From positions 102,021,300 through 102,085,299 of the forward strand of contig NC_092382.1 in the NCBI RefSeq assembly GCF_030028105.1: a DNA stretch of 64,000 nucleotides, in the 5' to 3' direction. The notes under the pieces were generated by a model. That model saw nothing but the letters and a program-made list of their open reading frames with translations, was not told the DNA's origin and made no database searches. The translations under genes were made by a program, and so were the position numbers. This document shows, one piece after another, positions 17,792 to 64,000 of the stretch (positions within the stretch are counted from its first letter, which is position 1; every line of letters starts with the position of its first letter). The DNA is from Mobula birostris. Taxonomy: Eukaryota.

Positions 17792-17951
17792 CTGGGGGAG
17801 ATTCAGAAGGCAGTTCTCGGAAGTCCTGGATTCCAGGGTTGAGTTCACCTCATGAATCTGTTGACGATATAGGCGCTGGGTCTTGTTCACCTCCTGACGT
17901 TGCTCGCAATGTTTCATTCACAGATGATCATAGACAGACGAGTCTGTAGCA
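17792..17951 (-). pseudogene. Truncated pseudo-exon 5 (stalk)
   Basis: VLQTRLSMIICE*...EVNKTQRLYRQQIHEVNSTLESRTSEN, homologous to gene A exon 5. Confidence 0.8.
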
Positions 17952-20320: not shown

Positions 20321-20356
20321 CAGATTGTGGCCATCCTCACGTGGTCTGTCACATAC

Positions 20357-20498
20357 CTCTTCCTCGATTGAGCTAATTTCCAGCAGTTTTGAGCCACCCT
20401 TCGAACAATTTATCTTCGCTCCAGCGTGAGATTTTGCCACCGTGATATGAAATAACAAGCGCCTCTCCTGCTGACCCATCCCTGTCAGCACGTCAATT
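20357..20498 (-). pseudogene. Second pseudo-exon 6 (duplicate of 17364-17506)
   Basis: ELTC*QGWVSRRGACYFIS/TVAKSHAGAKINCSKGGSKLLEISSIEEE; 142 nt; flanks match 17290-17740. Confidence 0.85.
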
Positions 20499-20704
20499 CT
20501 GTAAATGGGGAGCAGAGAACAGTGAGTGACGATATTGGGTTTTGCTGACAGTGAAACTGTGTCCCCACAGGGACCCTTCATGTCGTATCCGATATAAATA
20601 GTTACGAGTATATTCAGGGAAGGCAAATTTACCCTGCAACTATCCATTTTTCGCAGACTTGTTCACTATAGATAATTGGCCTCATGATTTACACTCAATG
20701 TTAT

Positions 20705-21020
20705 GGAACAGTTGTTGCCCCTCAACCATCAGGAAGAAGGTCCAGGAGCCTCAGGAGTCTCACAACCAGTTTCAAGAAGATATACTATCCCTCAACGATC
20801 TGAAGGGTGGTACAGGAGCCTCAGGACTCACACCACCGGGTTCAGGGACAGTTATTACCCAACAAAAATCAGGAAGAAGGTACAGGAGCCTCAGAGCCCT
20901 ACACTACCAGGTTCTGGAAAATTATTACCACTCAACCATCAGGATGGGTGTCTAGGAGCCTCAGGACTCAGACATCCAGGTTTCCTAACGGTTGCTACCC
21001 CTGAACCATCATGAAGGAGG
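20705..21020 (+). repeat. Tandem ~60-70 bp amplification of a Rex1-like 3' segment
   Basis: About 5 copies of CAACCATCAGGAAGAAGGTACAGGAGCCTCAGGACTCACACCACC... Confidence 0.6.
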
Positions 21021-23642: not shown

Positions 23643-23664
23643 ACAAATATGATTACATGATATA

Positions 23665-25267
23665 CAAATCCCATTTCCAGAAAAGTTGGGATATTTTCCA
23701 AAATGCAATAATAAACAAAAATCTGTGATATGTTAATTCACGCGAACATTTATTTAACTAAAAAAAAGTACAAAGAAAAGATTTTCAATAGTTTTACTGA
23801 CCAACTTACTTGTAATTTGTAAACATACACAAATTTAGAATTTAATGGCTGCAACAAACTCAACAAAAGTTGGGACAGAGGCATGTTTACCATTGTGTTA
23901 CAGCACTTTTTTTCTTTTAATAACACTTTTTAATCGTTTTGGAACTGAGGATACTAATTGTAGTAGATTTGCAATTGGAAATTTTGTCCATTCTTGCTTG
24001 ATATAAGACTTCAGCAGCTCAACAGTCCGTGGTCTCCGTTGTCTGATTCTCCTCTTCATGATGCGCCATACATTTTCAATAGGAGATAGATCTGGACTGG
24101 CAGCAGGCCGGTCAAGCACACGCACTCTTGTCTACAAGGCCACGCTGTTATAGCCCGTGCCGAATGTGGTCTGGCATTGTCCTGGTGAAATAAGCATGGA
24201 TGTCCCGGATGATACGTCGCCTTGATGGTAACGTACGTGTCCCTAAAATCCTAATATACGCCTCAGAGTCAATGGTACCTTCACATACATGCAACTCACC
24301 CATCCGTGGGCACTTATGCACCCCCATACCATCACAGATGCTGGCTTTTGCGCATTTCGCTGATAATAATCTGGATGGTCGTTTTCAACTTTGGCGCGGA
24401 GAACTCGACGCCCGTTTTTTCCGAAAACTAGCTGGAATGTGGACTCATCTGACCACAGCACACGTTTCCACAGTCTTTCGGTCCATCTGAGATGAGCTCG
24501 GGCCCAGAGAACTCGCCAGCATTTCTGCATAGAGTTGATGTTTGGCTTCCTCCTTGCGTAATACAGTTTCAAGTTGCATTTCTGGATGCAGCGACGGACT
24601 GTGTTCAGTGACAATTGTTTTCCGAAGTACTCCCGAGCCCAGGTGGCTATAATTGTCACAGTAGCATGACGGTTTCTTAGGCAGTGCCGCCTGAGGGCTC
24701 GAAGATCACGCGGATTCAACAGTGGTTTCCGACCTTGCCCTTTACGCACTGAGATGTCTCTGAATTCTCTGAATCTGTTCACAATATTATGTACTGTAGA
24801 TGTTGAAAGACCAAAATTCTCTTCAATCTTGCGTTGAGAAATGTTCCTTTTGAACTGACTAACAAGTCTCTCAGGAATTTTGGCACAAAGGGGTGAGCCA
24901 CGACCCATCCTTGCTTGCAAAGACTGAGCCTTTGATTGACGCTACTTTTATACCCAGTCATGATACCTCACCTGCTACCAATTAGCCTGTTTAATGTGGA
25001 GTCCTCCAATCCGGTGTTACTTGAATATTCTGTGCATTTCCAATCTTATTTTGACCCTGTCTCAACTTCTGTTGAGTGTGTTGCAACCATCAAATTCTAA
25101 ATGTGTGTATATTTACAAAATACAATTAAGTTGGTCAGTAAAACTATTAACAATCTTTCCTTTGAACTTTTGTCAGTTAAATAAAGGTTCACGTGAATTA
25201 ACATATCACAGATGTTTGTTTTTATTGCATTTTGGAATTATCCAAACTTTTCTGGAAATAGAGTTTG
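23665..25267 (-). mobile_element. Full-length Tc1 (DD34E) transposon, frameshifted transposase
   Basis: ~215-bp IR/DR TIRs, TA on both sides; transposase 24920-23898 with GRKP, WSDES, QDNARPH, SPDLSPIENVW. Confidence 0.92.
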
Positions 25268-25354
25268 TATATGTACAGTATTTGAAATATATCTTATGGA
25301 AACGTTTGATGATGAAGTTCTATATAAAAAATACAAAAAGTGCTGAAGATGAAA

Positions 25355-26400: not shown

Positions 26401-26465
26401 CAGCACACTCTGCTGGTATCAGAAAATGTGCGCAGTTCCCACCCGCCGCCGCTCTCCCCACTCAC

Positions 26466-26770
26466 CAATACCCAGCGCTTCGGCGTTCCAGTAGTCTCGA
26501 ACTGTGTGTGTCTCTCGGAGATGGTGTCTGTGTGTGTGTGACCGGATGGTGTGCTGCGTGAACGGGAAGGGGAAGGAAGGGGAGGAGAGAGGAGGCCAGG
26601 GAAGGGGTTGTGAGATTGCAGATACTGATGCAAATGGTGTGGAACCACGTGACCGGCCTGTGCATGCAGAGCTTGGAGAGGCTCAGAGCCTGGCGATAGA
26701 TATTCGGTGGAAGGGGGAAGTGTATCACCACACGTCATTTCTCCCTCAGACTTCCCACAATTGCCGCTGA
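26466..26770 (-). promoter_or_regulatory. Putative distal promoter + non-coding first exon (paralog of 58600-58803)
   Basis: GTGAGT donor after 26466; octamer 26628-35, RUNX-like/E-box 26643-51, plus ETS, RUNX, CRE-half and TGTGGGAA motifs 26705-26760. Confidence 0.5.
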
Positions 26771-30702: not shown

Positions 30703-30921
30703 NNNNNNNNNNNNNNNNNNNNNNNNNNNNNNNNNNNNNNNNNNNNNNNNNNNNNNNNNNNNNNNNNNNNNNNNNNNNNNNNNNNNNNNNNNNNNNNNNN
30801 NNNNNNNNNNNNNNNNNNNNNNNNNNNNNNNNNNNNNNNNNNNNNNNNNNNNNNNNNNNNNNNNNNNNNNNNNNNNNNNNNNNNNNNNNNNNNNNNNNNN
30901 NNNNNNNNNNNNNNNNNNNNN
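30703..30921. other. Assembly gap (219 N)
   Basis: Run of N. Confidence 1.
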
Positions 30922-35263: not shown

Positions 35264-36560
35264 TGTTGCAAAGGTGGGCGTTAACGGCGGACCCAAATGC
35301 AAGACACAGACACTGAAGTACTAGGAATAGGACCTGACTAGAGTAGGGACGTGACAGGGTGCAGACACGGAGCAGGGACAAGAGCGCAGATTTGGGCTAA
35401 GACAGGGACAAAACAGGGAACCCGGATAACGAACTGTGCACTAGGAGACTGGGCTTAGGCTCCGAGTTAAAGCCTGGACAAGGACACAGAACCCGGGACT
35501 TGCCTCGGGCTCGGGCCCCTGAACTGGGCAAGGACATGACATGACTGCAGGACACAGGCTGGGGTCTTGAAGCTGAGCTAGGAGACAGACTGGGGTCTTG
35601 AGGCCTGAGCTTAGAGACAGGCTGGGGTCTTGAGGCTTGAGATTGGAGATAGGTTGGGGTCTTGAGGCCTGAGCTGGGAGACAGGCTGGGGTTTTGAGGC
35701 TTCAGCTTGGAGACAGGCTTGAGCCCTGAGGCCTGAGCTTGGAGACAGGCTGGGGTCTTGAGGCCTGAGCTTGGAGACAGGCTGGGGACTTGAGGCCTGA
35801 GCTTGGAGACAGGCTGGGGACTTGAGGCCTGAGCTTGGAGACAGGCTGGGTTCTTCAGGCCTGAGCTTGGAGACAGGCTGGGGTCTTGAGGCCTGAGCTT
35901 GGAGACAGGCTGGGGTCTTCAGGCCTGAGCTTGGAGACAGGCTGGGGTCTTGAGGCCTGAGCTTGGAGACAGGCTGGGGCACTGAGGCCTGAGCTTGGAG
36001 ACAGGCTGGGGTCTTGAGGCCTGAGCTTGGAGACAGGCTTGGGGTCTTGAGGCCTAAGCTTGGAGACAGGCTGGGGTCTTGAGGCTTGAGATTGGAGATA
36101 GGTTGGGGTCTTGGGTCTTGATGCTGGAGGCTGCAGCCTGGGGTCCTGAGTCTTGGAATGTGGAGGTCGCTAACTCGGAGGCCACAGCTCGGAGACAGAC
36201 TGGGAACTGTACATCAACATAGAGCCTGGAATTATCCTCCGAAAAGCCGGGGATCATCTTTAACACGACACTAACATGAGACAGGACAGTACACAGACTT
36301 AGAGCTGGGACTTATTCCTAGACAAGCCGGGACTCAAATTTATCTCCACACCAATGTGGAACAGGTCCATCCGTAGGTTAACTGTAGAACGGCCGGAGTT
36401 ACCTAACAGAGGCAAAGCCAAGACAAGACAAGACCGGAAAACAACACCCCACCCCGCCCCCCACGCATGGCAACGGCAGAATGCCTCACTTACCCCACGA
36501 AAGCGAGGACAAGACAAGACAGATCTCCCTGTCGCGCACGTCAGAACTGCCTGACTTACT
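35264..36560. mobile_element. LTR-like element containing a tandem array
   Basis: TGTT start, GGACCCAAATGCA motif, abrupt insertion boundary; family not identifiable by eye. Confidence 0.4.
35555..36110. repeat. 32-bp minisatellite
   Basis: GAGGCCTGAGCTTGGAGACAGGCTGGGGTCTT, about 17 copies. Confidence 0.95.
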
Positions 36561-37479: not shown

Positions 37480-37678
37480 TCACTTGATTTCTGTCGCCTC
37501 CACTGCATGTTGACAGAGATCCTGAGTATGTTCAGGAATATGCGGGAACAAAACTGCCGACTTCTCGCAGATGAAACGCCGAGCATGATTGCAAGAACCC
37601 TTCGCTGGGTACGAGTGGCAGTCTCTGCAGTCTGACGTCCCCGAGGACACCTTGTACAGAAGATCCCAGTCTACATTC
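37480..37678 (-). CDS. Gene B last exon (CTLD C-terminal half)
   Basis: [65 protein letters not shown]. Confidence 0.92.
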
Positions 37679-40600
37679 CTGTCCAAGACGGTTAACAATT
37701 TTAACAGAGACAAAGCAGCTCCAGCAGAGAACCCGAGGCGAGACAGTCTACAAGCTAAGCCCATGAAATCAATCTCTCCTAACAGCCTGTGCCAGTCCCC
37801 AAGCTGATCCCACTCATCCACTCTCTCCCCACAGCTCCGTGCCAGTACCCAGACAAATACAATGGTCCAAATGTCTCCCCACAATCCTGTGTCAGTTCCC
37901 AAACTAATCGTGCAGACCGAATGTCACCCCACAGACCCATGTCTCCCCAAACTAATCGCACCGTACCGCTTTCTCGCCACAGTCTTCTGCCAGTCCCCAT
38001 ACAAATCGAACAGGACCACGCTCTCCCTTCAGATCTCTTTCATTCCCCGTACAAACCCCACTGTCCCACCGTCTCCCCACAGACTTATGGCTGTCCCGAG
38101 ATGAATCCCTCTCGTCCACACTCTTGCATCATCCCTGTGTCGGTCCCAGAATAATCCTGTTTCCCCTCACTATACCCAGAGCATCGTGTCAGTCTCCGAA
38201 CATATCGCAGTACACGGCGCACTCACCATAAACTCTGGTCCGCTCCCAGACTTGTACAACTGGCACCCTCTCTCCCACATCCGTACGTGAGTTTGCAAAC
38301 CAGTCCCATTAGCGCCCTGTATCGGCCTCCAAACTAATCCAGTTGTCCTACTCTCGCCCCTCAGATCTATGTCATTCACCAAACAAATGCCGCTGTTAAT
38401 CCCTCTCCTCACAGCCCGGCGACTATCTCCAAAATAATCCCACTCCACTGCGCTTTCCTCACCGATATGCGTCAGTACAAAAAATGAGATAATTCCTGTG
38501 TCCTGAGCTCTCCACACTGCCCCCAGGCAGTTTCCGAATTATCCCCACTGCCCGGACATTCCCCGACAGACACGTGTCGGACTTAAAATGTCCTCATTGT
38601 ACCACACTCTCCTGAGAACCATGTATAGTTTCAGCGTAAACTAATCCCACTTTCTCCCGTCAGGGTTATGTCAATACCCAACTCTCACACCACAGAGTAA
38701 TCCAAATCTCACCCGTCTTCGCATTTTCCAATCCAGTATGCACTGTTTCGGTACACAAGTTTGTCGGATACAAAGCTCTGTGAAATTAAATTTATTTGAT
38801 TAATGCCAAGAATCGAAAAGTATGTACGGAGTTTCTCTCAGTTGATTACAACATGAACCTGTGATTGGACGGTGTGGAGGGAGCTTCACTGTTTGCCATA
38901 TCCTGTGAATGTATCATGGGGCGGTGTGTAGGAAGATTCACTCTGTGTCTGACCCCGAGCAAGTGTGCTAGGAGTGTACTGTGGGAGTAACTCCGTGGCT
39001 GAACCCGGGGGAGTGTTGGGACGGTGTGGAGGGAGATTCACTCTGTGTCTGACCCCGGGAGTGTGTGATGGGACGGTGTGGAGGGAGATTCACTATGTGC
39101 CATATCCATGAATGTGTCATGGGGCGCTGTGTAGGAACATTCACTCTGTGTTCGAATCCGGGAGTGTGTGATGGGACAGTGTGGAGGGAGCTTAACTCTG
39201 TGTCTGACCCCGAGAATGTGTACTAAGAGTGTATTCTGGGAGTAACTCTGTGGTTGAACCCGGGGGTGTGATGGGGCGGTGTGGAGGGAGATAACTCTAT
39301 GTCTGAACCCGAGAATGTGTCCTGGGAGTGTAGTATGGGTGTCACTCTGTGTGTCACCCCGGAAGTGTCTGATGATTCTTGTGAGATCTTCTTGTGATGT
39401 GACACATACCGCTTCATCTCTTGAATTGATTTCAAGCAGCCTTGCATCACGGTTTGAACATTCTTGCATCGCTGTTGGGAAAAATGTTTCAGACGTGGAT
39501 ACGAAATAACACCGGTCTTTATTTGTGATCCAGTCCTTGGAACACGTATGCTCTGGAAATAGGAATAAGGAGTAGTGAATATCACTGCACACCGTCCAAT
39601 CACGCACATCGGGGTGAGAGATAGAGTGAATCTCCCTCCATTCCGTCCCATCTAACACCACACGGGATCAGACCCTTCGACCGTCATCAATGATGCCCTC
39701 ACCCGCAGCTCCTGCATTCCCGGACTTCAGCCCTCACCCCATCCTCCCGTCACCACAACAGGGACAGAGAACCCCTTGTCTTCACCGTCCACCCCACCAG
39801 ACTCCGGATCCAGCACCTTATCCTCCGCAACTTCAGCCAAATTCAACAGGACCCACCAGGAAACACATCTTTCACTCTCTACTCCTCTCCGCTTTCCGAA
39901 GGGATCGTTCCTTCGGCGACTCCCTAGTCTACACGTCCCTCCCAACGGAGCAGGTCCTGAAGAGTGAGTATAGAGACCTTGGTCGGAAGTTAAAAAGCAG
40001 GACCTCCAGGGTGGGTGGTAATCTCAGGATTGCCACCTGTGCCACGTGCCAGTGACGGTAAGAATAGGATGCTCTGGCGGATGGACACGTGGCTGAGAAC
40101 TGGTGTAGGGGGCAGAGTTTCAGATTTCAGGATCTTTGGCACCTTTTCTGCGGCAGCTGTGACCTGTACAAGAGAGACGGGTTACACCCGAACTACAGGG
40201 GAGCCAATATTCTTGCTGGGAAATTTGTCTGTACTATTGTGGAGGGTTTAAACTAAATCTGCAGGGGGATGGGGATGGTAACCAGAGTGCCAGAGCAGAT
40301 AGCGGAGCGGGGGTGAAAATAATTGGTGTTAAAAGTTCATGGAAAGTCACAAACAGAAGGGTTATGTGTGGTTGTAATAATCATCTGATGTGTTCTCTAT
40401 TTCAAAGCGAGAAGTATCCTGGGGAAGGCTGACGAGCTGAGGGCGTGGATTGACACATGAAATTACGACATAATATCAATTAGTGAAACTTGGCTACAGC
40501 ACGGGCAGGACTGGCAGCTTAATGTTCCAGCGTTCCGATGTTTCAGACGTGATAGAGGCAGAGGAATGAAGGGAAGCGGGTGTGGCATTGCTGGTCAGGG

Positions 40601-49600: not shown

Positions 49601-52600
49601 CCATGGATTCAGACATTGGGTGACGCTCTGTGGGCACTGTCCCATCACACTATCCCACTGTCAGACATAGAGTGAAGCTGGATCCACACCCTCCCATCTG
49701 AGAGTCCCCGAGTCAGTCCTAGAGCGAAGCTGTAATGTTACGTCTCACAATCCCGTGGTCAGACACAGAGTGAAACCACCTCCACAACGTCCCACCACAC
49801 TCTCCTGGGTTCGGTGATAGAGTGCAACTTCCTCCGCGCAGCCCCATCACACGATCACCGAGTCAGACACTGAGTGAATCTCCCTATATACCATCTCTTC
49901 ACACACTCCCTATGTTAAGCACAGAGTGACGTTTCCTCTCTCTGTGCCTGCACCGTCATGAGGAGCGTGTTAAAGAGTGGATGATGCCTCACCTCTTCTG
50001 CTGGTCAACAATTCACAGATTTGAGCTTTGGTTTCGTTGACAGATCTGTATTTCGTTTCCATGTCAGTGAACTGGTGACGGAGATCAGTGTGCGTTCGGC
50101 TAAGATCGATCAGATCAGAGTTGAGCGTAGATAGATTCTTTAGACAGGTTCTCTGGGAGAGATTCAGGTGGGAAATTAATTCACGATAGTTTCGGTCGGA
50201 GGTGATCATAGACTGACGAATCTGTGATACTGAGAGAGAAGGTGAAAGATATTTATCGTTTACAGTGACACGTGAGTCAGCGTCACGCTACCGAATGGGT
50301 CACAGAGAGTGATGTGTCAGTGTCACGGTGAAGGGTGTCACAGTGATGGATGTGCTGGTGGCACAGTGAGAGAAGTCGGCGCCACCTTGCGGTGCGTGTC
50401 TGTGCCGCGCTGAGCGGTAAATAAATTTCCCGGTGAAGGTGTTATTGTTACAACGGGGTCCGCGTCGGTATCGTACGGGGCATGTTCGTGTTGCTGTGAG
50501 GTACGAGCCTGTGTCACTGTGATAGGTGTTTTTGTGCCCCGGCGAGAGTTGTGCCGGGTTACCGTGTCTCGATGTCACTGCGAGGGAAATGTCAGAGTGA
50601 GCGACCTGGTGTTGTCACGCTGGGTGGAGTATCTGTGTCATGGTGTTGGGTCTGCCGATCTCACAGAGAGGGGTGTGTCCGTGTCGACCTTGGAGACATG
50701 TCATGGCCACGGTCGGTGTGACAGTGTCTCGCTGAGGTGTGTCGATGTCACCAAGACTACTAGGTCGGGGACGCTGTGAAATTAAGTGTCGGTATCACGG
50801 TGAGTGGTTTGCCTGTGTCACGGTGAGGTGCCTCAGTGAGCGGTGCGTCGGAGTTATTTTGAGGGCCGACACCGTATCGGTAATGGGTGTTGCAGTTGGT
50901 GTGAGTCTTTGTCACGATACCGAGCTGGACGGATCTCGTTGAGGAGCGTGTAGGTGTCTTGGTGTGCGGTGCCTAACTGTCACGGTGAAGGACGTGTCGG
51001 TCTCACTGTGAGGTGAGTTTCGGTGTCGCCTAAGGGGAGTGTAACAGTTACACTGTCAGGGTCAGGTCGATGTTCCCAGTAAGGGGACCATGTCTGTGTC
51101 ACGATGTGGCTCGTGTCCCTGTCTCGGTTAGGAGTGCAACTGTGTCGAATTGAAGTTCGCGTCCGTGCGACGGTGACAGGATTGTCTGGATGAGTCCTGA
51201 ATGTGTTACGGTAAAGGTCGTGTCTTTGTCACGGTTAGCGGTGTGTCTGTGTTATGGTCAGGAGTTATTGTGTTGTTACGGTAAGGGGCGTGTCTGCGTC
51301 ACTGTAGTGTTTTACAATAACAATTTGTTCCACTCTCTTTATTTGCGGTCTGACTCCACCCGGACCCCGTTCGGCTCACCGTGGATCGAAAGCCCGGCCA
51401 CAATCACGGCAAGGATGCACGTAATGATGCAGAGTAGGTAGATCTTACGGTACGGTCTATTTCCGATGTACTCTTTCGGCTCCTGTTCGTGCGCACCTGT
51501 GGAGAGAGCACAAGACCATAAGATATAGGAGCAGAAGTATGCTATTCGGCCTATTAAGTTTGCCTTTTCCTCATAACGTTTGAAGTTCGTTTCTCAGACA
51601 GAAAGCCCGTCACTAATGGTGTTCACCGGGGTCAAGGGTGGGACCAGTGATCTTTATCAATTATATCGACGATTTGTGGTAGATTATATTGGTCGCGGTT
51701 GGTAAGCCTGCACACAACACTAACGTCGATGCCGAGGTAAACAGTGAAGACAGTTACCGCTTACACTGGGATCTCGATTACCTGGGGAAGGGGGCAGAGC
51801 AGTTGCAAATGTGATTTATTTCTCATAAGTGCGAGCTATCGTATTTCAGAAAGGAAAACAAGGGTACAACGTTCACAGTGTTCGGGAGAAACCCTGGCGT
51901 GTGTTGAATAACAGTGGGACCAAGGGCCCCACGTCCAACGTTCCCAGAGAGTGAAGTTACCGGTAGAGGGGTCGGTGAAGGTGTCTGACGCCCCGGCCTT
52001 CATCAATCAGGGCACGGAGTACAGGATTAAGGGGTCACGTTACAGTTGTACAAGACGTCGGTGAGGCCGCCCTTGCAGTACGGTGTTTAGTTTTGGTCGC
52101 CCTGCTATAGGAAAGATATCAATGAGCTGGACAGATTGCAGAGGGAGATTTACGACGATATTGCCGGGGCTCGAGGGATTCAGTTACGGAGATAAGTCAA
52201 GCAGGTGGGGACTTTATTCCTTGGAGCGCAGGGGTGACCTTACAGGGGTGTATACAAACACGTGGGTACACAGAGAAGGTGAATGCGCACTGTAATTTTC
52301 TTTAATCTTGGGGAACCGTGGACCGGAGCGCACATGTCTGAGATGATAGCAGAAAGAGATTTAAACTGGGACCCGAGTGACGATTTTGTTTTTACCCAGA
52401 CGGCGGTCTGTCTATGGAACGAGCTGCCAGAGGAAGTGATGGATGCCGATGCATTAGGACTTGAATTGTTGGGCGTATGGCACGTGACCACTTCAGAGTG
52501 ACGTCATAACTGTGAACTCTGACCTCCTTGTGCAGTCACTGGCATTTCGGCTGGTGCCGAGGTAATGGGAGGATCTTCATAATCATCGATGAGAATGTCG

Positions 52601-55600
52601 TCTTTCCGAAGGTTCAGCATTGAGTAGATGGATGTGACACCGTCTGGGAAGAAAGAAAGAGAATGTGAGAGACAGAGAAATAGAAGGAGGAGGAATGGTT
52701 ACTTCGAGTGCCAGGATTTAGATGTTTCAGAAAGGACAGGGAGAGAGGCAAAAGAGGTGGGACTGTTGATCAGAGATAGTGTCACTGCTGCAGAAGAGCA
52801 GGAAGACAAGCAGGAATTGCTTATACCAAGGGGCTGGAGACTACCGAGACGGTATATGAGGTGTTGCTCCTCCAAACTTGTCCCTACACCTCATCTCCTG
52901 CAAACATTCAGGGCCCCAAACAGTCTTTCCAGGTGAGACAACACTTCACTTGTGAGTCTGTTGGGGTCGACTATTGGATCCGGTACTCCCGGTGCGACCT
53001 CATCTACATCGGTGAAACCCGACGCAGATTGGGGGATCACTTCGTCGAGCACCTCCACTCCGTCCGCCACAACAGCTATGATCTCCCGGTAGCCACCCAC
53101 TTCAACTCTGCTTCCCACTTCCATTCAGATATGTCCATATATGGCCTCCTCTACCGCTATGATGAAACTAAACTCAGGTTGGAGGAGCAACACCTCATAT
53201 ACCGTCCAGGTAGTCTCCAGCCCCTTGGTATGAACATAGAATTCTCCGACTTCCGGTAATTCCCTCCCCCTCCCTTCCTCTATCCTTATTTCACTCTACC
53301 CCGTCCCCCAGCTCCCTCATGGTTCCGCCTCCTTCTTCTACCACCCATTTATTCAGGGCTATGAAGTCACTGCTTCTCCTCCACCACCACTTTGTCTTTC
53401 AAGTTACTGGTCTTTCAACTGAAGCTACAAGCATTCTTCAAATCCTTCCCCATCTTTCATTCTTCAGTCCTGACGAAGGGTTCCGGTCCGAAACGTCGAC
53501 TCATCGTTTCTGACTGATGCTGCCCGACCTGCTGAGTTCATGCAGCGTACTGAAAGTGTTGCTTCAATATCTCTACAGGGAGTTTTTTTTTTTTTTTTAA
53601 TAGACGGCACGCTCTAAGATTGAATGGTTCAGATGGGAGAGAGTTCAGTAGGTGTGCTTGAAATGATTTCTTTTAGAGTTCCTCAAAGAACTCTAAAGGC
53701 TTGATAGACATGACTTGCCGTTAACAAAACCATGTTGACTGTCCCTGATCAGACCATGATTTTCTAAACGCCCAGAGATCCAATCTCTTAGAATCTTTTC
53801 CAAGACAGACGGAAAGCTCACTGGACTATAATTACCCGGACTGTCCCTACTAACTTTTTTGAACAACGGGTAAACATTCGCCTCCCTCCAATCCTCAGGT
53901 ACCATTCACGTGGACACGAGGACATAAAGGTCCTCGCTCTGCCTAGGAAGGCAGTGGAGGCGAATTCTCTGGATTATTTCAAGAAAGATTTAGATCGAGC
54001 TCTTAAAGGTAGCAGAGTCAAGGGATATGGGGAGAAGACAGGAAAAGGGTACTGATTGTGGGTGATCAGCCATGATCACAGTGAATAGCAGTGCTGACTC
54101 GAAGGGATGAATGGCCGACTCCTGTACCTATTGTCTATTGTGTGTTAACCCACCCATCTACATTTGTATTCAGATCATTGTATATATCTCAAAGAGGAGA
54201 TGTCCCAGTGGAATGTCATAGATACAGATCACATCATAGGAGTAAAAGAGGTAAAAGAGTAACAGAGCGCAGAGTAAACTGTCACAGTTACAGAGAAAGT
54301 ACAGTGCAGGCAGACATTAATATTCAAGGGGATACGACGTAGCAGACGGCGATGTCTAGAGTGCATTACCGTCATCGGGGACCACTGTATAGTCTGATAA
54401 AAGCGGGCACAAACTGCCTTTGTGCCTGGCCAGGCTTGTTTACGTATCTTCGCCCGATGTGGGAGAGTATGGGTTGGGCGGGGGTCTCGTAAGAACATTA
54501 TCCTGGGTGGGTCGGAGTCTTTATTACGGAGGCTGCTTCAGCGATGCAGCGGGATGTGTGGATGAAGGCCTTGGAGGTGAGGCAGCCTGATCTGCGCGAT
54601 TCAAGCTGACTGAGAACAAAGTGCATGAAATGACAGATTGTCACTTCCTGGGAAGAGGACAATCAATGGAGCAGAGCCAATTAAAACGTGTTAAATGTCA
54701 GGAGCCGAGTAACAAACTTTTGTTACCCCGATGGCGGTCAGTCAGTGGTACAAGCTGCCAGAGGTAGTGGCCGAGGCAGATGCATTAGAAACTTGGACAC
54801 TTGTGAGTATGACACGTGACCTCTTCAGTGTCGGTACTGTGAACTCTGACCTGTTCGTGCAGTGACTCGCAGCTCGCCGGAACTCGAGGCAATGGGAGGA
54901 ACCTCATCCTCATCGATGAGGTGTTCGTCTTTCCCAATGTTCAGCTCGGAGTAGGTGGAGGTCAGACGGTCTGGGGAAGAAAGAGGAGAGAATGAGAGAG
55001 GGAAATTTAGAAGGAGGACAGACCAGTAAAGCATGGTGGAGGAGTGAGGTCCTAGAAACGGAGCAGCGATGCGGGAAGATAGAGTGCGGAAAGAGAGGGC
55101 TGAGTGTAAATATTGAAGATGAGAGAGAGGTGCAAGTGAGGGGAAAGAGCCGAGGAGAAAGAGCAGGAGAGTGAGGATGAAAAGGATGAATGGACTGGGC
55201 AGAGAGGAGTGAGCTATTTGAGCGATGGGTGAGAAGATGGGAGTGAATGGGGGAGAGAGAACGGTGACGGAAAGGGGAAAGACAGAGAGAGGGAGGGAGA
55301 AAAGGGAGAGAGATTATGCGTAGGGGAGAGGCAGGGGTGAGAACATCAGCGAAGGAGAAGGTGAGAGAGGGGGACTGAGGGAGGGGAAACTTGGGAGGCT
55401 CAAGGGTGCAAAATAAAGGGAGAGAGACAGAAGGGGAGACAGGTTAAATGGAGAGGGTAAAGAGAGAGGGGAGAGCGTGGGGGAGAGAGGGACGAGGTGA
55501 ATACAGAGAGTGAGAAGGTGTGGAGGGGGCAGTTGCTCGGAAAATTGGGTCACAGCGAGAGGGTGTGAACGGGGAGATAGACTGAGACAGGAGGGAGAAA

Positions 55601-56952
55601 AAGTGGCGGGGCGAAGTGAGCGGAGTGAGGGAAAGAGTGCGCGAGAAGAACGAGGACGGTGGAGAAGGACAATATGAAAGAGAGTGTGGGAAAGGGGAGA
55701 ATGGGGAAAGAGAGTTAGATAGAGGGGAAATGGCAACGGAGAGAGCGGGAGGCGTAGAAGGGTAGAAACAGTGATAAGGGTAGGGAAAGGGGAGAGAATG
55801 AAGGTAAGAGAAAGAATTAGTGGGCCAGAGAAGAAGAAAAGGTGAGAGAGGATTAGCGTGTGAGAGATAGGGGGGAGAAAGAAGGAGGCAGGGGAGAGAG
55901 AGTAGAAAGGATGAGAGAGTAGGGTTAGAACGCGGAGAGTATTGTTCACATTTTATAGAGTTCCCCTTCCTCGCTGCCTCTTTCTACTCTCCTCCCTCCT
56001 CGCCACTCCTCCCAAGGGGTTTCCTCCTTATTGGCCATGCCACAGCACTCCCTGCTGTCGCACCACGCCCCCCCCCCACCACACAGAGCCCCCTCCTCAG
56101 TGCCCCCCAATTTAACCCCCTCACACGGTTCTCCCACCACCCCACAAATCCCGTGGCGTTCTCTGCACCAATCCCACCCAGAGCAATCTTCTCATCACTT
56201 TCCACAGCCCTCCGTCTCTACCGTCCCGCCTCCTGCTCTGCCTTACCCCGTCCCTTCCCAGAGCGCTCCCCCCTCACCGACCATCCCACAGAGCTCGTAT
56301 CTCATCGCGTCTCCCACGCATTGCCTCGGAATCATTCTCAAACAGGGAATCATTAGTGTCAACTGCACCCGTGCCACGAGATTTCTCGACAGGAATGGAC
56401 ACATCGGCTGAACAGAGTCAAAACAACAAAGTGAAACTGACCTGCATCTGTCCGGGGAACGGAGAGGCCCCTGATATCCGGTTTCGCGTACGATACATCA
56501 GGTTCAGCTGGGAAAAGAACAGTGAGAGTCAGAAACAGGGTGAGGCTCCCGTCCCACGCTCCTATCACAAACTCCCGTGGTCAGACACAGAGTCAGGCTT
56601 CCTCCACCCCGTTCCATTCCCCACTCCCGCGGTCAGCAACAGAGTGAATCTCCCTCCACACCATCCCATCACACAGACACGGGATGAGACACCGAGTGAA
56701 GCTCCCTCCCCACTGTCCCATTACACATTCCCAGAGCCAGAAACAGAGAGTCGCTCCCTCCACCCGTCCCATCACACGCTCCGACTGTCAGACAAAGAGT
56801 GTTGCTCCCTCCACCCCGTCCCATTACACACTCCAGGGGACAGAAAGAGATTGAAACTCCCTCCTTCCCTCACGGCCTCACTCACTTCTCGATGGAAGCC
56901 GTAAGTCCGGTTTGACGAGCTGAACATTCGCATAAGTCTGGCTGTCTTCCAT
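37480..56952 (-). CDS. Gene B: intact type II TM C-type lectin-like inhibitory receptor, 377 aa, 9 exons
   Basis: Exons 56886-56952, 56442-56507, 54851-54970, 52524-52643, 51380-51496, 49993-50229, 39410-39552, 38713-38777, 37480-37678; all GT/AG; 1134 nt, no internal stop. Confidence 0.9.
38713..38777 (-). CDS. Gene B WIG exon
   Basis: [22 protein letters not shown]. Confidence 0.92.
38860..39370. repeat. 52-bp minisatellite, G-rich on + (gene B intron 6)
   Basis: Degenerate copies. Confidence 0.9.
39410..39552 (-). CDS. Gene B CTLD N-terminal exon
   Basis: [48 protein letters not shown]. Confidence 0.93.
39672..39946 (+). mobile_element. Penelope-like internal fragment
   Basis: ..[28 protein letters not shown], resembling the RT-to-GIY-YIG linker. 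Confidence 0.65.
39947..43320 (+). mobile_element. CR1 LINE (ORF1 end + ORF2), degenerate
   Basis: EN and RT motifs ([30 protein letters not shown]) and 3' tail. Confidence 0.9.
43321..43578 (+). mobile_element. Tc1 right-end fragment
   Basis: Homologous to 25630-25889. Confidence 0.75.
43580..44352. repeat. 52-bp minisatellite, C-rich on + (gene B intron 5)
   Basis: Degenerate copies. Confidence 0.85.
44353..48500 (+). mobile_element. Near full-length CR1 LINE, degenerate
   Basis: ORF1 with Cys finger (YVCRKC) and SGNH esterase (VIGDSIVRG); ORF2 EN-RT ([10 protein letters not shown]); (TTTCTATG)n tail. Confidence 0.92.
48510..49935. repeat. 52-bp minisatellite, C-rich on +, degenerate
   Basis: Continuation of the intron 5 array. 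Confidence 0.85.
49993..50229 (-). CDS. Gene B stalk exon (79 codons)
   Basis: [32 protein letters not shown]...[12 protein letters not shown]. Confidence 0.92.
50265..51310. repeat. Degenerate GTGTCACRGTGA repeat (gene B intron 4)
   Basis: Same family as 6950-7320. Confidence 0.75.
51380..51496 (-). CDS. Gene B transmembrane exon
   Basis: [39 protein letters not shown]. Confidence 0.92.
52524..52643 (-). CDS. Gene B exon 3b (duplicated ITIM exon)
   Basis: [40 protein letters not shown]; 120 nt, phase 1-1, AG/GT. Confidence 0.85.
52820..53565 (+). mobile_element. Penelope-like element 3' part (GIY-YIG endonuclease) with inverted 5' piece
   Basis: [36 protein letters not shown]; 52822-52873 is an inverted copy of ~53180-53232. 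Confidence 0.9.
53466..53501 (+). ncRNA. Minimal type I hammerhead ribozyme motif (Penelope pLTR)
   Basis: AGTC-CTGACGA-AGGGTTCCGGTCC-GAAA-CGTC-GACT; predicted cleavage after 53497. Confidence 0.7.
54851..54970 (-). CDS. Gene B exon 3a (ITIM STYSEL)
   Basis: [40 protein letters not shown]. Confidence 0.9.
56442..56507 (-). CDS. Gene B exon 2
   Basis: [22 protein letters not shown]. Confidence 0.9.
56886..56952 (-). CDS. Gene B exon 1 coding part
   Basis: [22 protein letters not shown]; good Kozak context (AGCATGG); GTGAGT donor. Confidence 0.88.
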
Positions 56953-57049
56953 GCTGTCTCGGATTCCGTGCGTCTCTGAACTCAGCGAGGGGATGTATCC
57001 GATATCAGAGGCAGCCCCTGTTGACAGCGGAGTCAGACCGACAGGAACG

Positions 57050-57105
57050 AACACCAGATGAGCAGCTGATAAAGAGAGGAGCCGAGAGCAGGGGAGGAAG
57101 TGCTG
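57050..57105 (-). promoter_or_regulatory. Gene B proximal promoter: E-boxes, GATA, ETS(PU.1)
   Basis: CAGATG 57055-60, CAGCTG 57063-68, TGATAA 57067-72, GAGGAAGTG 57094-102. Confidence 0.55.
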
Positions 57106-58634
57106 GGGAAGAGGGAGATTGAGGGTGTGAGAGGCGGTGGTCTGGAGCGATGAGAGTGGCAGGGGGAAGAGTAGTGAGAATGGGGAGGTACACAGGGAGG
57201 GCAGAGTAAGGGGAGGTTAGGGCTTTGCGGAAAGAGAGACGTGGGATACAGGGGTCAGAAAGGGATGGCGGAATGAAAGAAGGGGAGGGCGAGAAGTGGG
57301 AGAGAATGGGGAGAGAATTTAAAGTAGCGAGTGAGTAAACAGAGGGCGAGCTAAAGGGGGAAAGCAGGAGAAAGAGAAACGAACAGGGAGGGGCGGAGGA
57401 AGAGGGTGGAGAGATGCAGGGAAGGGGCGATTGTAGGGGAAGGAATATGGAAGTTGGAAGGATATAGGAAGAGAAGAAAGGAGAGAGAAAACAATGGAAG
57501 AAGGGGAAGAGTGGGGGATGACGAGTGAAGAGGGAGGGAGAGACAGAGCGATATGTTGTCTCTCACGCAGAGCCTTTATTGTCGGAGAGATTTACAACGA
57601 ACACCAGCCCCCTCTCCCGCTAACCCCAACCTCCAGGTGATTCCTGGTTTGAGTGTCAGCGCTCCCATTGCTCTGCTTATCGCCGGGGCTTCAGATCGTC
57701 TGTGCTCTGGAAACCACGGCCCCGGGGCAAACCAGCAACACCCACCGAAGTTAGCAAGCGCCACACCTCCCCCCCCACCCCGAGGATACGTCAGAGCAAT
57801 AGATTGCCATTTTAGATTGTGTAACACTTATGAAAGAAAGCGGACATTTAGATCTTGAAGGTCACAGGAAACCAGCGCAGGCTGATCGGTATCTGCGGTT
57901 TGAATCTCTTCACCCATTGGAAGATAAGCCGGGGGTTGTCAGTGTCAGTGTTTCAGAGAAGTATTGAAAGCTTGCTGCTGCACTGACTGAGCTATATTCG
58001 CAGCAAGAAATAAAAATAGCAGGGACTTCAGCCCAACAGACGCAGTTCAGGAGCTCTCTCAAAAACCCTCCATCACCTCCTGTCAATCATGTTCTCCCTC
58101 TGCGTCCCTCACTCTTCCCTCACTATCTTACTATTTCTCTCCCTTGACTGCCTCCAACCTGCTTCAATTTCGCTCCTTTCTTCAGCTCTCCCATTTTCCT
58201 CTTACCCCTCTCCCTCCTGTGCCTTTCTATCTCAGTGCCCTCCTCATGAAGCTTTCTCTTTTTTCTCCCCACGCTTTCTACCCGACAAGAGAGATTCTAC
58301 GTACCTTGTTCCTATTTTCCAGAGCAGGCGATGTGGCGAAGCAGCATTTTTCACACCCAGATTCAAAGCGTCTGGAAATAAATTCAAAAGTGGAAGAGTC
58401 CTTTGTCAGATACACAGAAGATATATCCACACCGGACTGAATATCCATCCACACTGTTCCATCCCACACTCCCGTGATCAAACGCAGAGTGAAACTCCCT
58501 CCACACCGTCCCAGCACACACGCCCGGGGTCAGACGCATGGTGAAGCCCCCTCCACACCTTTGGTGTCAGATCTGCTGTCTTTCACGCGATATCGATCTC
58601 TCAGTTCTGAGCTTGCCTGTGTCTCTGTGTGCAC

Positions 58635-58803
58635 AGGATTATCGTGTGGTTTCACATCACTTCCTGCCAGTGCTGCAAACTCACCACCTATTCACAGCCC
58701 TACGTCTCCTCCCGCTCCCTCCTCAGTTCTACATTTGATCACAAACACAGATTATCTCTGAGACAGGCTCACAATTAGAGACTACAGGAACGCTGAAGTG
58801 ATG
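58635..58803 (+). promoter_or_regulatory. Putative distal promoter (GATA-RUNX-ETS) + non-coding exon
   Basis: TTATC 58639-43, TGTGGTTT 58645-52, CACTTCCTG 58658-66, Inr-like TCAGTTC 58723-29, GTGAGT donor at 58804; homologous to 26466-26700. Confidence 0.55.
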
Positions 58804-58904
58804 GTGAGTGCTGAGGTGGGAGAGAGGGAGTAAAGAGGGAGATACGTTCTGTTTCCGAATCTGTTGGTGTATAATGGGACTGTGAGGAGGGAGCTTCACT
58901 CTGT

Positions 58905-59037
58905 AACACTCACAACACGCTGGAGGAGCTCAGCAATTCGGGCAGCATCCGTGGAACGATCAATCAACGTTTCGGGCCGGAACTCTTCCACGGGTACTGC
59001 CCGACATGTCGAGTTCCTCCAGCGTGTTGTGAATGTT
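58905..59037. mobile_element. Fold-back mini-element made of two inverted Penelope-type ends
   Basis: CACAACACGCTGGAGGA..CGGGCAG pairs with CTGCCCG..TCCTCCAGCGTGTTGTG; partial hammerhead (CCCGAAACGTT) on minus strand. Confidence 0.6.
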
Positions 59038-59074
59038 GTTTTCACCGCAGCATTGACAGATTATTTTGTGTTTA

Positions 59075-59480
59075 AACTTCACGCTGTGTTTGACCCCAGG
59101 TGTTTGTGATAAGACGGTGCGCGGGAGTTTCTCTCTGTTTCGGACTCTGTGGAGTCTGTGACCGGACGGTGTAGAGAGAGTTTCACTCTGTGTCTGACCC
59201 CGGGAGTGTGTGATGGGACGGTGTGGAGGGAGATTCACTCTGTGTCTGACCCCGGGAGTGTGTGATGGAACGGTGTGGAGGGAGATTCACTCTGTGTCTG
59301 ACCCCGGGAGTGTGTGATCGGACGGTGTGGAGGGAGATTCACTCTGTGTCTGACTCCGTGTGTGCGATGCGACGGTGTGGAGGGAACTTCACTCCCTGTC
59401 TGATCCTGACGACTGTGAGATGCGACGGTCTGGAGGAAGTTGTACTTGTGTCTGACTCCGGGAGTGGTTGTTCGGACAGT
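59075..59480. repeat. 52-bp minisatellite, G-rich on +
   Basis: About 8 copies, followed by (CT)n(CA)n at 59494-59537. Confidence 0.9.
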
Positions 59481-59487
59481 GCCGAGA

Positions 59488-59537
<50 letters not shown>

Positions 59538-60784
59538 TTTCAGTGTGTCACTGTTCTGGAGAGCTGGAGAGAGGAGCGAAATTGAAGCAGGTTAGAGGCA
59601 TTGATGGGAAAGAAATAGGGAGATAGTGAGGGGAGAGTCAGGGACGCAGAGAGAGAAAATAATTGACAGAAGCTGATGGAGGATTTTGAGAGAGCTCCTG
59701 AACTCTGTCTGTTGGGCTGACGTCCCTGCTATTTTTATTTCTTGCTGTGTATATAGCTCAGTCAGTGCAGCAGCAAGCTTTCAATACTTCTCTGAAACAC
59801 AGACACTGACAACCCCCGGCTTATCTTCCAATGGGTGAAGAGATTCAAACCACAGATACCGATCAGCCTGCGCTCTTTTCCTGTGACCTTCAATATCTCA
59901 ATCTATGATTTCTTTCATAAGTGTTACACAATCTAAAATGGCAATCTACTGCTCTGACGTCTTCTCGGAGGGAGGGGCTCGCTTACTTCGGTGGGTGTTG
60001 CGTGTTTGTCCCGGGGCCGTGGTTTCTAGATCAGAGAGGGTCTGAAGCCCCGGCGATAAGCAAAGCAATGGGAGCGCTGACGCTCAAACCAGGAATCACC
60101 TGGAGGTTGGAGTTAGCGGGAGAGGGGGCTGGTGTTCGTTGTAAATCTCTCCGACAATAAAAGCTCTGCGTGAGAGACACCATACCCGTCCGTCTCTCCC
60201 TCCCTCTTCACTCGTCATCCTCCACTCTTCCCCTTCTTCCATTCTTTTCTCTCTTCTTTCTTCTCTTCCTATATCCTTCCACATTCCATATTCCTTCCCC
60301 CACAATCGCCCCTTCCCTGCATCGCTCTTCCCTCTCTTCCTCCGCCCCTCCCTGTTCGTTTCTCTTTCTCCTGCTTTCCCCCTTTAGCTCGCCCTCTGTT
60401 CACTCACTCGCTACTCTAAATTCTCTCCCCACATCTCCCACTTCTCGCCCTCCTCTTCTTTCATTCCGCCATCCCTTTCTGACCCCTGTATCCCACGTCT
60501 CTCTTTCCGCCAAGCCCTAACCTCCCCTCACTCTCCCCTCCCTGAGCATCTCCCCACTCTCACTACTCTTCCCCCTGCCACTCTCATCGCTCCAGACCAC
60601 CGCCTCTCACACCCTCAATCTCCCTCTTCCCAGGCACTTCCTCCCCTGCTCTCGGCTGCTCTTTTTATCAGCTGCTCATCCGTTGTTTGTTTCTGTCGGC
60701 CTGACTCCGCGGGGAACAGGGGCTTCCTCTGACAACGATCACATCCCCTCGCTGAGTTGAGAGACGCAAAGAATCCGAGACAGC

Positions 60785-60851
60785 ATGGAAGACAGGCAGA
60801 CTTATGCGAATGTTCAGCTCGTCAAACCGGACTTACGGTTTCCATCGAGAA
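60785..60851 (+). CDS. Gene D exon 1 (inverted paralog of gene B)
   Basis: [22 protein letters not shown]; GTGAGT donor. Confidence 0.85.
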
Positions 60852-61227
60852 GTGAGTGAGGCCGTGACGGAAGGAGGGAGTTTCAATCTATTCTGTCCCC
60901 TGGAGTGTGTAATGGGACGGGGTGGAGGGAGCAACACTCTTTGTCTGACAGTCGGAGCGTGTGATTGGACGGGTGGAGGGAGCGACTCTCTGTTTCTGGC
61001 TCTGGGAATGTGTAATGGGACAGTGGGGAGGGAGCTTCACTCTGTGTCTCATCCCGTGTCTGTGTGTTGGCATGGTGTGGAGGGAGATTCACTCTGTTGC
61101 TGACTGCGGGAGTGGGGAATGGAACGGGGTGGAGGAAGCTTGACTCTGTGTCTGACCCCGGGAGTTTGTGATAGGAGCCTGGGTCGCGGCGTCACCCTGT
61201 TTCTGACTCTCACTGTTCTTTTCCCAG

Positions 61228-61293
61228 CTGAACCTGATGTATCGTACGCGAAACCGAATATCAAGGGCCTCTCCGTTCCCCGGACAGATGCAG
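61228..61293 (+). CDS. Gene D exon 2
   Basis: [22 protein letters not shown]; AG/GT. Confidence 0.85.
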
Positions 61294-62765
61294 GTCAGTT
61301 TCACTTTGTTGTTTTGACTCTGTTCAGCCGATATGTCCATTCCTGTCGAGAAATCTCGTGGCACGGGTGCAGTTGACACTAATGATTCCCTGTTTGAGAA
61401 TGATTCCGAGGCAATGCGTGGGAGACGCGATGAGATACGAGCTCTGTGGGATGGTCGATGAGGGGGGAGCGCTCTGGGAAGGGGCGGGGTAAGGCAGAGC
61501 AGGAGGCGGGACGGTAGAGACGGAGGGCTGTGGAAAGTGATGAGAAGATTGCTCTGGGTGGGATCGGTGCAGAGAACGTCACGGGATTTGTGGTGTGGTG
61601 GGAGAACCGTGTGAGGGGGTTAAATTGGGGGGCACTGAGGAGGGGGCTCTGTGTGGTGGGGGGGGGCGTGGTGCGACAGCAGGGAGTGCTGCGGCATGGC
61701 CAATAAGGAGGAAACCCCTTGGGAGGAGTGGCGAGGAGGGAGGAGAGTAGAAAGAGGCAGTGAGGAAGGGGAACTCTATAAAATGTGAACAATACTCTCC
61801 GCGTTCTAACCCTGCTCTCTCATCATTTCTACTCTCTCTCCCCTGCCTCCCTCTTTCTCCCCCCTATCTCTCACACGCTAATCCGCTCTCACCTTCTTTT
61901 CTTCTTCTCTGGCCCACTAATTCTTTCTCTTACCCTCATTCTCTCCACTTTCCCTACCCTTATCACTGTTTCTACCCTTCTACGCCTCCCGCTCTCTCCG
62001 TTGCCATTTCCCCTCTATCTAACTCTCTTTCCCCATTCTCCCCTTTCCCACACTCTCTTTCATATTGTCCTTCTCCACCGTCCTCGTTCTTCTCGCGCAC
62101 TCTTTCCCTCACTCCGCTCACTTCGCCCCGCCACTTTTTCTCCCTCCTGTCTCAGTCTATCTCCCCGTTCACACCCTCTCGCTGTGACCCAATCTTCCGA
62201 GCAACTACCCCCTCCACACCTTCTCACTCTCTGTATTCACCTCGTCCCTCTCTCCCCACGCTCTCCCCTCTCTCTTTACCCTCTCTATTTAACCTGTCTC
62301 CCCTTCTGTCTCTCTCCCTTTATTTTGCACCCTTGAGCCTCCCAAGTTTCCCCTCCCTCAGTCCCCCTCTCTCACCTTCTCCTTCGCTGATGTTCTCACC
62401 CCTGCCTCTCCCCTACGCATAATATCTCTCCCTTTTCTCCCTCCCTCTCTCTGTCTTCCCCTTTCCGTCACCGTTCTCTCTCCCCCATTCACTCCCATCT
62501 TCTCACCCATCGCTCAAATCGCTCACTCCTCTCTGCCCAGTCCATTCATCCTTTTCATCCTCACTCTCCTGCTCTTTCTCCTCGGCTCTTTCCCCTCACT
62601 TGCACCTCTCTCTCATCTTCAATATCTACCACTCAGCCCTCTCTTTCCGCACTCTATCTTCCCGCATCGCTGCTCCGTTTCTCTGTCCTCACTCCTCCAC
62701 CATGCTTTACTGCTCTGTCCTCCTTCTAAATCTCTCTCTCTCATTCTCTCCTCTTTCTTCCCCAG

Positions 62766-62885
62766 ACCGTCTGACCTCCACCTACTCCGAGCTGAACATT
62801 GGGAAAGACGAACACCTCATCACTGAGGATGAGGTTCCTCCCATTGCCTCGAGTTCCGGCGAGCTGCGAGTCACTGCACGAACAG
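62766..62885 (+). CDS. Gene D exon 3 (ITIM STYSEL); gene continues beyond window
   Basis: [40 protein letters not shown]; AG/GT. Confidence 0.85.
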
Positions 62886-64000
62886 GTCAGAGTTCACAGT
62901 ACCGACACTGAAGAGGTCACGTGTCATACTCACAAGTGTCCAAGTTTCTAATGCATCTGCCTCGGCCACTACCTCTGGCAGCTTGTACCACTGACTGACC
63001 GCCATCGGGGTAACAAAAGTTTGTTACTCGGCTCCTGACATTTAACACGTTTTAATTGGCTCTGCTCCATTGATTGTCCTCTTCCCAGGAAGTGACAATC
63101 TGTCATTTCAGGCACTTTGTTCTCAGTCAGCTTGAATCGCGCAGATCAGGCTGCCTCACCTCCAAGGCCTTCATCCACACATCCCGCTGCATCGCTGAAG
63201 CAGCCTCCGTAATAAAGACTCCGACCCACCCAGGATAATGTTCTTACGAGACCCCCGCCCAACCCATACTCTCCCACATCGGGGAAGATACGTAAACAAG
63301 CCTCGCCAGGCACAAAGGCAGTTTGTGCCCGCTTTTATCAGACTATACAGTGGTCCCCGATGACGGTAATGCACTCTAGACATCGCCGTCTGCTACGTCG
63401 TATCCCCTTGAATATTAATATCTGCCTGCACTGTACTTTCTCTGTAACTGTGACACTTTACTCTGCGCTCTGTTATTCTTTTCCCTCTTTTACTCCTATG
63501 ATGTGATCTGTATCTATGACATTCCACTGGGACATCTCCTCTTTGAGATATATACAATGATCTGAATGCAAATGTAGATGGGTGGGATAATACACAATAG
63601 ACAATAGGTACAGGATTAGGCCATTCATCCCTTCGAGTCAGCACCGCTATTCACTGTGATCATGGCTGAACGTCCAGAATCAGTACCCTTTTCCTGCCTT
63701 CTCCCCATATCCCTTGACTCTGCTACCTTTAAGAGCTCGATCTAAATCTTTCTTGAAATAATCCAGAGAATTCGCCTCCACTGCCTTCCTAGGCAGAGCG
63801 AGGACCTTTATGTCCTCGTGTCCACGTGAATGGTACCTGAGGATTGGAGGGAGGCGAATGTTTACCCGTTGTTCAAAAATGTTAGTAGGGACAGTCCGGG
63901 TAATTATAGTCCAGTGAGCTTTCCGTCTGTCTTGGAAAAGATTCTTAGAGATTGGATCTCTGGGCGTTTAGAAAATTATGGTCTAATCAGGGACAGTCAG

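Follow-up and report, generated by a model that had tools for sequence, protein, structure and literature searches.

Several described gene families resemble, in one feature or another, the locus treated here, a pair of head-to-head receptor genes (B on the minus and D on the plus strand) of the ray Mobula birostris, which lie in inverted arms around a short spacer. Both genes are situated in a stretch of 64,000 nucleotides (NCBI RefSeq assembly GCF_030028105.1, contig NC_092382.1, positions 102,021,300 to 102,085,299 of the forward strand), in the following referred to as the window, for which a preliminary description had proposed an invertible promoter module between the two genes. Statements on the published systems refer to the parts of the cited sources that were covered.

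The head-to-head paralogs SIGLEC11 and SIGLEC16 have 5′ regions that gene conversion has kept at 97–99% identity within each species, next to less similar regions (PMC5701461). Similarly, B and D are head-to-head immune receptor genes that appear homogenised at their 5′ end. However, in SIGLEC11/SIGLEC16 the converted part comprises upstream DNA and ligand-binding exons, and the genes encode type I receptors with opposite signals and are 9 kb apart, whereas B and D encode type II receptors, with the tail carrying the immunoreceptor tyrosine-based inhibitory motif (ITIM) homogenised, the promoter excluded and a spacer of 1.4 kb. For the paired receptors KLRC, KLRI, KLRB, KLRA and PIR it was shown that a “merohomogenization” took place after speciation and affected one part of the gene (PMC3210942). 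The homogenisation suggested for the ray is likewise confined to one part of lectin-like receptor genes, but it is the mirror image: in the KLR and PIR genes homogenisation affects the ligand-binding domains and spares the signalling parts, whereas in the ray the tails are homogenised and the lectin domains stay apart.

Inverted repeats of 1.6–7 kb flank validated polymorphic inversions in the human genome, 11 of 16 of which are recurrent (PMC3961182); these inversions were genotyped in both orientations, whereas the ray locus is known in one. In the flip/flop system of yeast chromosome XIV, inverted gene-pair repeats of ~4 kb are continually homogenised and re-create the inversion (PMC9731477), there with a 24-kb spacer and both isomers documented, compared to a ~1.4-kb spacer and a single known orientation in the ray. 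Hybrid genes of the chicken BG family arise by recombination that joins different promoters and 5′ untranslated regions to different gene bodies (PMC4046983). This is also an immune multigene family with exchanged 5′ parts, but its genes form a tandem array of immunoglobulin type, expression was shown, and no inversion is reported in the parts of the source covered. Finally, the switches of Ly49 (Pro1) and KIR act by the direction of transcription and not by DNA inversion (PMC4222648). As in Ly49 and KIR, the ray locus belongs to an inhibitory receptor cluster in which the proximal promoter is preceded by a distal element; unlike in Ly49 Pro1, the paired TATA and C/EBP layout was not found in the ray spacer element.

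Inverted arms and a step in their identity

The reading we favour, and consider rather probable, is that the locus represents a junction left by an ancient inversion, or by an inverted duplication, in a tandem cluster of inhibitory C-type-lectin-like receptor genes, with gene conversion acting later. The break (58191/58192) would have interrupted a plus-strand paralog (relic X) within the intron that precedes its first lectin exon, and would have separated the proximal promoter of gene B from the upstream element of this gene, leaving B and D head to head with 1.4 kb of debris between them that would still hold the upstream element of D. Later, non-reciprocal exchange among B, D and other near-identical copies might have homogenised the ITIM-tail region from the ATG outward, while the promoters would have drifted to 92% identity, with ~50% identity retained between the lectin domains of the type-1 and type-2 receptors. 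As a side effect, the inner segment of 3.8 kb could now and then be inverted by germline crossover between the outer arms, i.e., the locus would be an inversion junction under concerted evolution for which a promoter swap is possible. We infer the inversion history from the orientations, as the genes and relics to the left of 58191 are all on the minus strand and those to the right all on the plus strand, including the relic and the satellite arrays of the spacer.

The inverted arms themselves are real. Self-comparison of the window by BLAST gives a single inverted alignment of 59558–63999 with the reverse complement of 58191–53736, with 95.7% identity in 4,462 columns and 12 gap openings. The left arm (53736–58191) contains the promoter region and exons 1–4 of gene B, the right arm (59558–63999) those of gene D, and the spacer of 1,366 bp (58192–59557) consists of plus-strand gene-family debris and repeats. 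The right arm reaches the end of the window and extends past it, and the left limit at 53736 is only the mirror of this edge, so that the preliminary description was correct in stating arms of at least 4.4 kb around a spacer of ~1.4 kb.

The identity of the arms changes abruptly at 60775/56962, ten bases upstream of the ATG, with 91.9% in the inner part (99 of 1,215 columns mismatched) and 98.0% in the outer part (66 of 3,221 columns mismatched), which agrees with the earlier wording of near-identical outer arms. The likelihood ratio for this change-point is 40, compared to a maximum of 7.5 across 200 permutations, and a second change-point within the outer arms was not significant. Perfect tracts in the outer arms measure 287 and 246 bp. 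Going by the database models, homogenisation would extend to about the second ITIM exon. A reciprocal crossover between inverted repeats exchanges the flanks and leaves the identity between the arms the same. The step therefore records either non-reciprocal copying or a re-duplication and provides no evidence for a flip, as a reciprocal flip would not homogenise the arms. In our reading the step points to gene conversion. Moreover, D is a mosaic: its exons 1 and 2 carry residues common to the database models P0007 and P0121, and its ITIM exon differs from that of B at one of 40 residues and from that of P0007 at nine of 40.

Tails and lectin domains in two Mobula species

The incongruence between tails and lectin domains is visible in the database models, in which M. 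birostris and M. hypostoma each have a gene with a B-like (type-1) ectodomain and a gene with a type-2 ectodomain. In the tail exons (123 amino acids) the paralogs within a species differ at one position in M. hypostoma and at three in M. birostris, compared to 17 and 17 positions between genes of the same type across the two species. In lectin exon 1 (48 amino acids) the relation is reversed, with 24 and 24 differences between the paralogs within a species and five and four between same-type genes across species. In trees of six of the 125 fetched proteins, the tail data reject a type-1 clade (p-value of the approximately unbiased test, p-AU, 1.65e-05) and the lectin-domain data reject both species clades (p-AU 1e-07 and 6e-08). 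Receptor tails thus appear to cluster by species and lectin domains by paralog type, as expected for partial-gene concerted evolution. The premise of the preliminary description that 5′ halves move between different ectodomains over evolution is supported by this incongruence. Model P0008 is itself a mosaic of a B-type tail, transmembrane exon and lectin domain with a type-2 neck. The M. birostris models include a 5′-only copy (P0121) and partial type-1 copies (P0002, P0003), and further mosaic or duplicated-exon models of this species, with tandem repeats of exon 1 among them, are found among P0008, P0121, P0015 and P0017.

Several points weigh against the combination of an inversion junction and later gene conversion. 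A recent partial re-duplication would yield the same identity step, and several near-identical copies lie on the same 112-Mb contig, so that the homogenised tract may have come from a copy other than the opposite arm. The M. hypostoma tail pair was not resolved as a clade, although such a clade was not rejected either (p-AU 0.47), and the groups tested in the trees were picked after the residue comparison, so that the p-values are not a priori ones. The proteins are automated gene models, which are possibly mis-joined among near-identical copies, and B and D need not correspond to the type-1/type-2 pair seen in the database, as the downstream exons of D lie past the window.

Spacer, promoter-like elements and receptor genes

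The spacer is not a purpose-built cassette, as judged from its content: besides satellite arrays, it comprises the decayed remains of a lectin exon and an upstream element with a further copy elsewhere. A decayed, internally deleted first lectin exon with its acceptor (58282–58424, plus strand) is what is left of relic gene X, cut at the junction; a profile of four paralog exons matches 58329–58424 with an E value of 2e-10 and 58282–58330 with 0.021. It is followed on the plus strand by 52-bp satellite units (58435–58559), oriented as is typical of the intron that follows lectin exon 1 in plus-strand genes, and by the upstream element (58580–58831). Next come a short palindromic repeat (58905–59037; further copies at 53469–53570 and 5882–5975) and a second 52-bp satellite array (59078–59481, plus strand) in the orientation of plus-strand gene 5′ introns, which passes into (CT)n(CA)n adjoining the start of the arm. 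As the content of the spacer derives entirely from plus-strand genes, the element points at D, as the preliminary description had stated. The 52-bp minisatellite occurs in many introns throughout the window with a strand bias by intron type, i.e., 5′ introns carry it one way and the intron after lectin exon 1 the opposite way. An Rfam search of 52000–64000 returned no matches. A weak match (E 0.014) in the inner arms, suggestive of the decayed remains of a last lectin exon, was rejected because a three-copy profile did not confirm it.

The preliminary description had assigned to the spacer a GATA-RUNX-ETS element with a non-coding exon and donor. Judged by motif patterns, the RUNX site at 58645 and the ETS site at 58659 (minus strand) are strict matches, but the GATA site just upstream of RUNX is not strict, the only strict one being at 58752 within the proposed exon. 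A RUNX-ETS pair within at most 40 bp occurs once in the whole window, with 0.78 expected (60 shuffles), and arises in 53 of 2,000 shuffles of the spacer. Both the donor after 58803 and, before the ATG of D, the AG acceptors that end at 60633 and 60671 exist as described. However, B carries equivalent acceptors, and a donor-like site at 58685 on the minus strand, facing B, scores equal to the donor facing D (9.3 vs 9.1); both scores are within the top 1.5–1.7% of 7,825 GT sites, which for 280 bp is about chance level. The upstream element is a candidate for a non-coding exon 0 or an enhancer of D. It was found in the N-termini of none of the 125 protein models, a test to which non-coding exons are invisible.

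A paralogous copy of the element lies at 26445–26713 on the minus strand (E 1e-21, 69% identity, 186 of 268 columns) and is likewise followed by a 52-bp array. It has kept the RUNX-like word, and the ETS word is replaced by an octamer-like one; the octamer ATTTGCAT at 26628 (minus strand) occupies the position of ETS. The octamer has a role in immunoglobulin promoters. Weaker partial copies are present at 26036–25939 and 31378–31319, and all copies are on the gene strand. Two further repeats of the window are a segment at 23660–25272, bounded by inverted ends of ~215 bp with 88% identity and presumably a Tc1/mariner-like transposon, and a 32-bp tandem repeat with 17.6 copies at 35550–36113.

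Each gene has a promoter-like element of its own. That of D (59964–60158, plus strand; observed/expected CpG 0.81) contains RUNX-like and GATA-like words that are kept in A, B and D, that of B (57557–57764, minus strand) is homologous to it, and that of gene A (13237–13439, minus strand) is homologous to those in both arms (E 2.6e-17). The observed/expected CpG ratio is 0.46 in the spacer element compared to 0.70–0.81 in the proximal elements. The element of gene A lies within the N-terminus of two of the 125 protein models, those of B and D within none. The similarity of paralog models to the sequence preceding the ATG sets in at ~60668 or at 60718–60722, which is consistent with a use of the D acceptors. 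The conserved element in each arm leaves for the spacer element at most the role of an extra upstream exon or enhancer, and B, having its own, would not depend on the spacer. Most likely each gene is driven by its own proximal promoter, the promoter functions of B and D being deduced from these conserved words and homologies.

According to an exon-by-exon translation, the genes of the window encode type II receptors, in which the tail is followed by a single transmembrane exon, the neck and a lectin domain spread over three exons. Gene B (56952–37480, minus strand) has a reading frame that is open throughout, with coding exon 1 (56886–56952), exon 2 (56442–56507), an ITIM exon with STYSEL (54851–54970), a second ITIM exon with SIYSML (52524–52643), whose mirror position in D is beyond the window, a hydrophobic transmembrane exon (51496–51380) and a neck exon (50229–49993), and three lectin-domain exons of the type-1 ectodomain (37480–39552). 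Within the window D (plus strand) has exons between 60785 and 62885, its ectodomain exons being beyond 64000. The region 60634–60851 comprises its candidate acceptors (exon starts 60634, 60672 and 60720), the identity step at ~60775 and coding exon 1 with the ATG at 60785; exon 2 (61228–61293) and the ITIM exon with STYSEL (62766–62885) follow, the latter being the last D exon in the window. Exons 1, 2 and 4 of D are open and have intact splice sites. Two ITIM matches in B and one in D lie within the window, and B has the N-terminal ITIM tail, transmembrane and neck order of a type II receptor.

The lectin assignment of B is made via P0008, to which its lectin exons are 94–100% identical: Lectin_C was above the cut-off in all four close models (P0008, P0009, P0004 and P0006), and in none of seven single window exons searched against Pfam, which gave merely sub-threshold coiled-coil matches. 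By sequence the nearest solved relatives (best PDB matches) are CLEC9A, LOX-1 and CLEC4A, and Ly49 is absent from the top matches. On the grounds of lectin domain and tail, B and D would be type II C-type-lectin-like (CLEC/KLR-like) inhibitory receptors. The neck exon of B is 100% and 99% identical to two M. birostris models, and the best 120 of its 171 matches (203 candidates) are all from four ray species. No model among the matches listed fits B or D throughout, so that the window may represent another haplotype or copy, or the genes may be hidden in clusters. The ITIM exon of D gave four matches among nine candidates, the best at 95% and none identical, and a search with the tail gave 12 matches among 134 candidates without D among them; these searches return cluster representatives, and D could be hidden within a cluster.

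An open second last-lectin exon, type-2-like by eye, lies 3.5 kb downstream of that of B (34011–33810, minus strand); it could provide B with two alternative lectin C-halves by splicing or be a relic. Both arms also contain an open 90-bp candidate exon (61328–61417, plus strand, and 56407–56318, minus strand) with a good acceptor and a weak donor, which is not in the close database models. Gene A (12591–3750, minus strand) has a shortened exon 1 and a stop early in the first lectin exon at ~4935 (minus strand), and an extra copy of lectin exon 2 is located downstream of its last exon (1117–1054, minus strand). Gene C is a relic set at 16–21 kb (16285–20768, minus strand) comprising part of a neck exon, lectin exon 1 twice in duplicate blocks of 83% identity, and a decayed exon 2; tail and transmembrane exons were looked for there and not found.

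Alternative explanations and significance

An assembly artefact, i.e., a false duplication or a fold-back read, is very improbable. The receptor cluster is very repetitive and the absence of a listed model fitting B or D throughout would agree with it, but the arms differ by 12 gaps and by 165 substitutions, whose spectrum is that of natural mutation. Transitions and transversions number 50/49 and 32/34 in the arms and 36/33 in a control paralog pair, and this similarity speaks against both sequencing error and a fold-back origin. The 1.4-kb spacer is unique and its junction is without a gap, the sole run of N in the window being at 30703–30921 and none occurring across 30922–64000, and several residues specific to D reappear in other annotated paralogs, so that the artefact named as a possibility in the preliminary description was not borne out. 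A far stronger contender, coming close to an even chance and compatible with the explanation preferred here, is that D is a 5′-only or same-type duplicate of B, in which case the palindrome would be a copy-number variant or pseudogene with nothing to swap. The 5′-only model P0121 and the partial type-1 models P0002 and P0003 of M. birostris suggest this, as does the lack of a 100% match to the D ITIM exon among the matches listed (four among nine candidates, the best at 95%), and the window contains other relics (C, X) and a stop codon in gene A; the open exons and intact splice sites of D and the restriction of the search to cluster representatives speak against it. If D has a different ectodomain instead, recurrent crossover in the outer arms might let both orientations segregate in the germline, so that each of two different ectodomains could come under the control of either set of promoters, the distal element included, which as a whole we consider distinctly unlikely. 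The repeat anatomy is that expected for inversion, with at least 3.2 kb at 98% and the perfect tracts of 287 and 246 bp, and as human repeats of 1.6–7 kb flank validated and largely recurrent inversions (11 of 16; PMC3961182), a germline flip is plausible by analogy. One tail is common to two ectodomain types in two species, the promoters differ by 8% and the distal element is on one side only. Against this, a single haplotype in one orientation is known, which cannot reveal an inversion, the step in identity does not speak for crossover, and the ectodomain of D is beyond the window, with 5′-only and same-type copies occurring in M. birostris. The promoter swap of the preliminary description is permitted by the arm anatomy, but it would invert the entire inner segment of ~3.8 kb with both diverged promoter regions and not the spacer alone, with the small protein change of five of 83 residues in exons 1, 2 and 4. 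That the inversion segregates in the population is unlikely but conceivable, and that it does so with a real promoter swap has a slim chance.

The element in the spacer might instead be a shared bidirectional or competing switch choosing B or D in each cell, as in Ly49 or KIR, a possibility we regard as quite improbable. The RUNX-ETS pair as the sole one in the window, the donor-like sites on both strands with matching acceptors in both arms and the conservation in a paralogous copy would fit such a switch. However, no TATA or C/EBP word is present in 58566–58850, unlike in Ly49 Pro1 with its two TATA boxes and C/EBP sites (PMC4222648), so that by this one feature the ray element is not a switch of the Pro1 type. 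In addition, ETS is lost in the paralogous copy, whose setting is tandem and not head-to-head, the donor scores are about at chance level and the CpG ratio is lower than at the proximal elements. A programmed somatic inversion in leukocytes, which had been mentioned as possible, deserves hardly any credence. The inverted geometry only would favour it, whereas a scan of the window for recombination signal sequences yielded 12 weak matches, of which the two in the region concerned have a 12-spacer and four mismatches and lie inside a satellite array, and found no 12/23 signal pair flanking the arms, which leaves such a flip without support; no recombinase gene was noticed among the annotated genes of the window. 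We know of no vertebrate precedent for programmed somatic inversion outside antigen receptor loci.

As a summary of the wider context, the lectin-like inhibitory receptors of cartilaginous fish are barely described. No paper on this receptor family in rays was found in a literature search that mostly did not cover subscription journals, titles and abstract beginnings of the papers listed on the Mobula birostris genome assembly gave nothing about the locus, and a term search in the covered part of PMC4701786 gave nothing on sharks. What is supported here is a large family of receptors that shuffle quickly, their common inhibitory tail being kept uniform and their ligand-binding domains distinct, the reverse of the known paired-receptor pattern. 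With a similarly slim chance, D carries a type-2 lectin domain, the tail exchange also resolves as crossovers and Mobula populations hold both orientations of the 3.8-kb two-promoter module. The orientation would then set which ligand-binding domain gets which promoter and distal exon, so that in a cartilaginous fish the promoters of inhibitory receptors with different specificities would be swapped recurrently and heritably. If the inversion segregates and the ectodomain of D differs, one structural variant would reassign the expression of two receptors and would be missed by genotyping of single-nucleotide polymorphisms.

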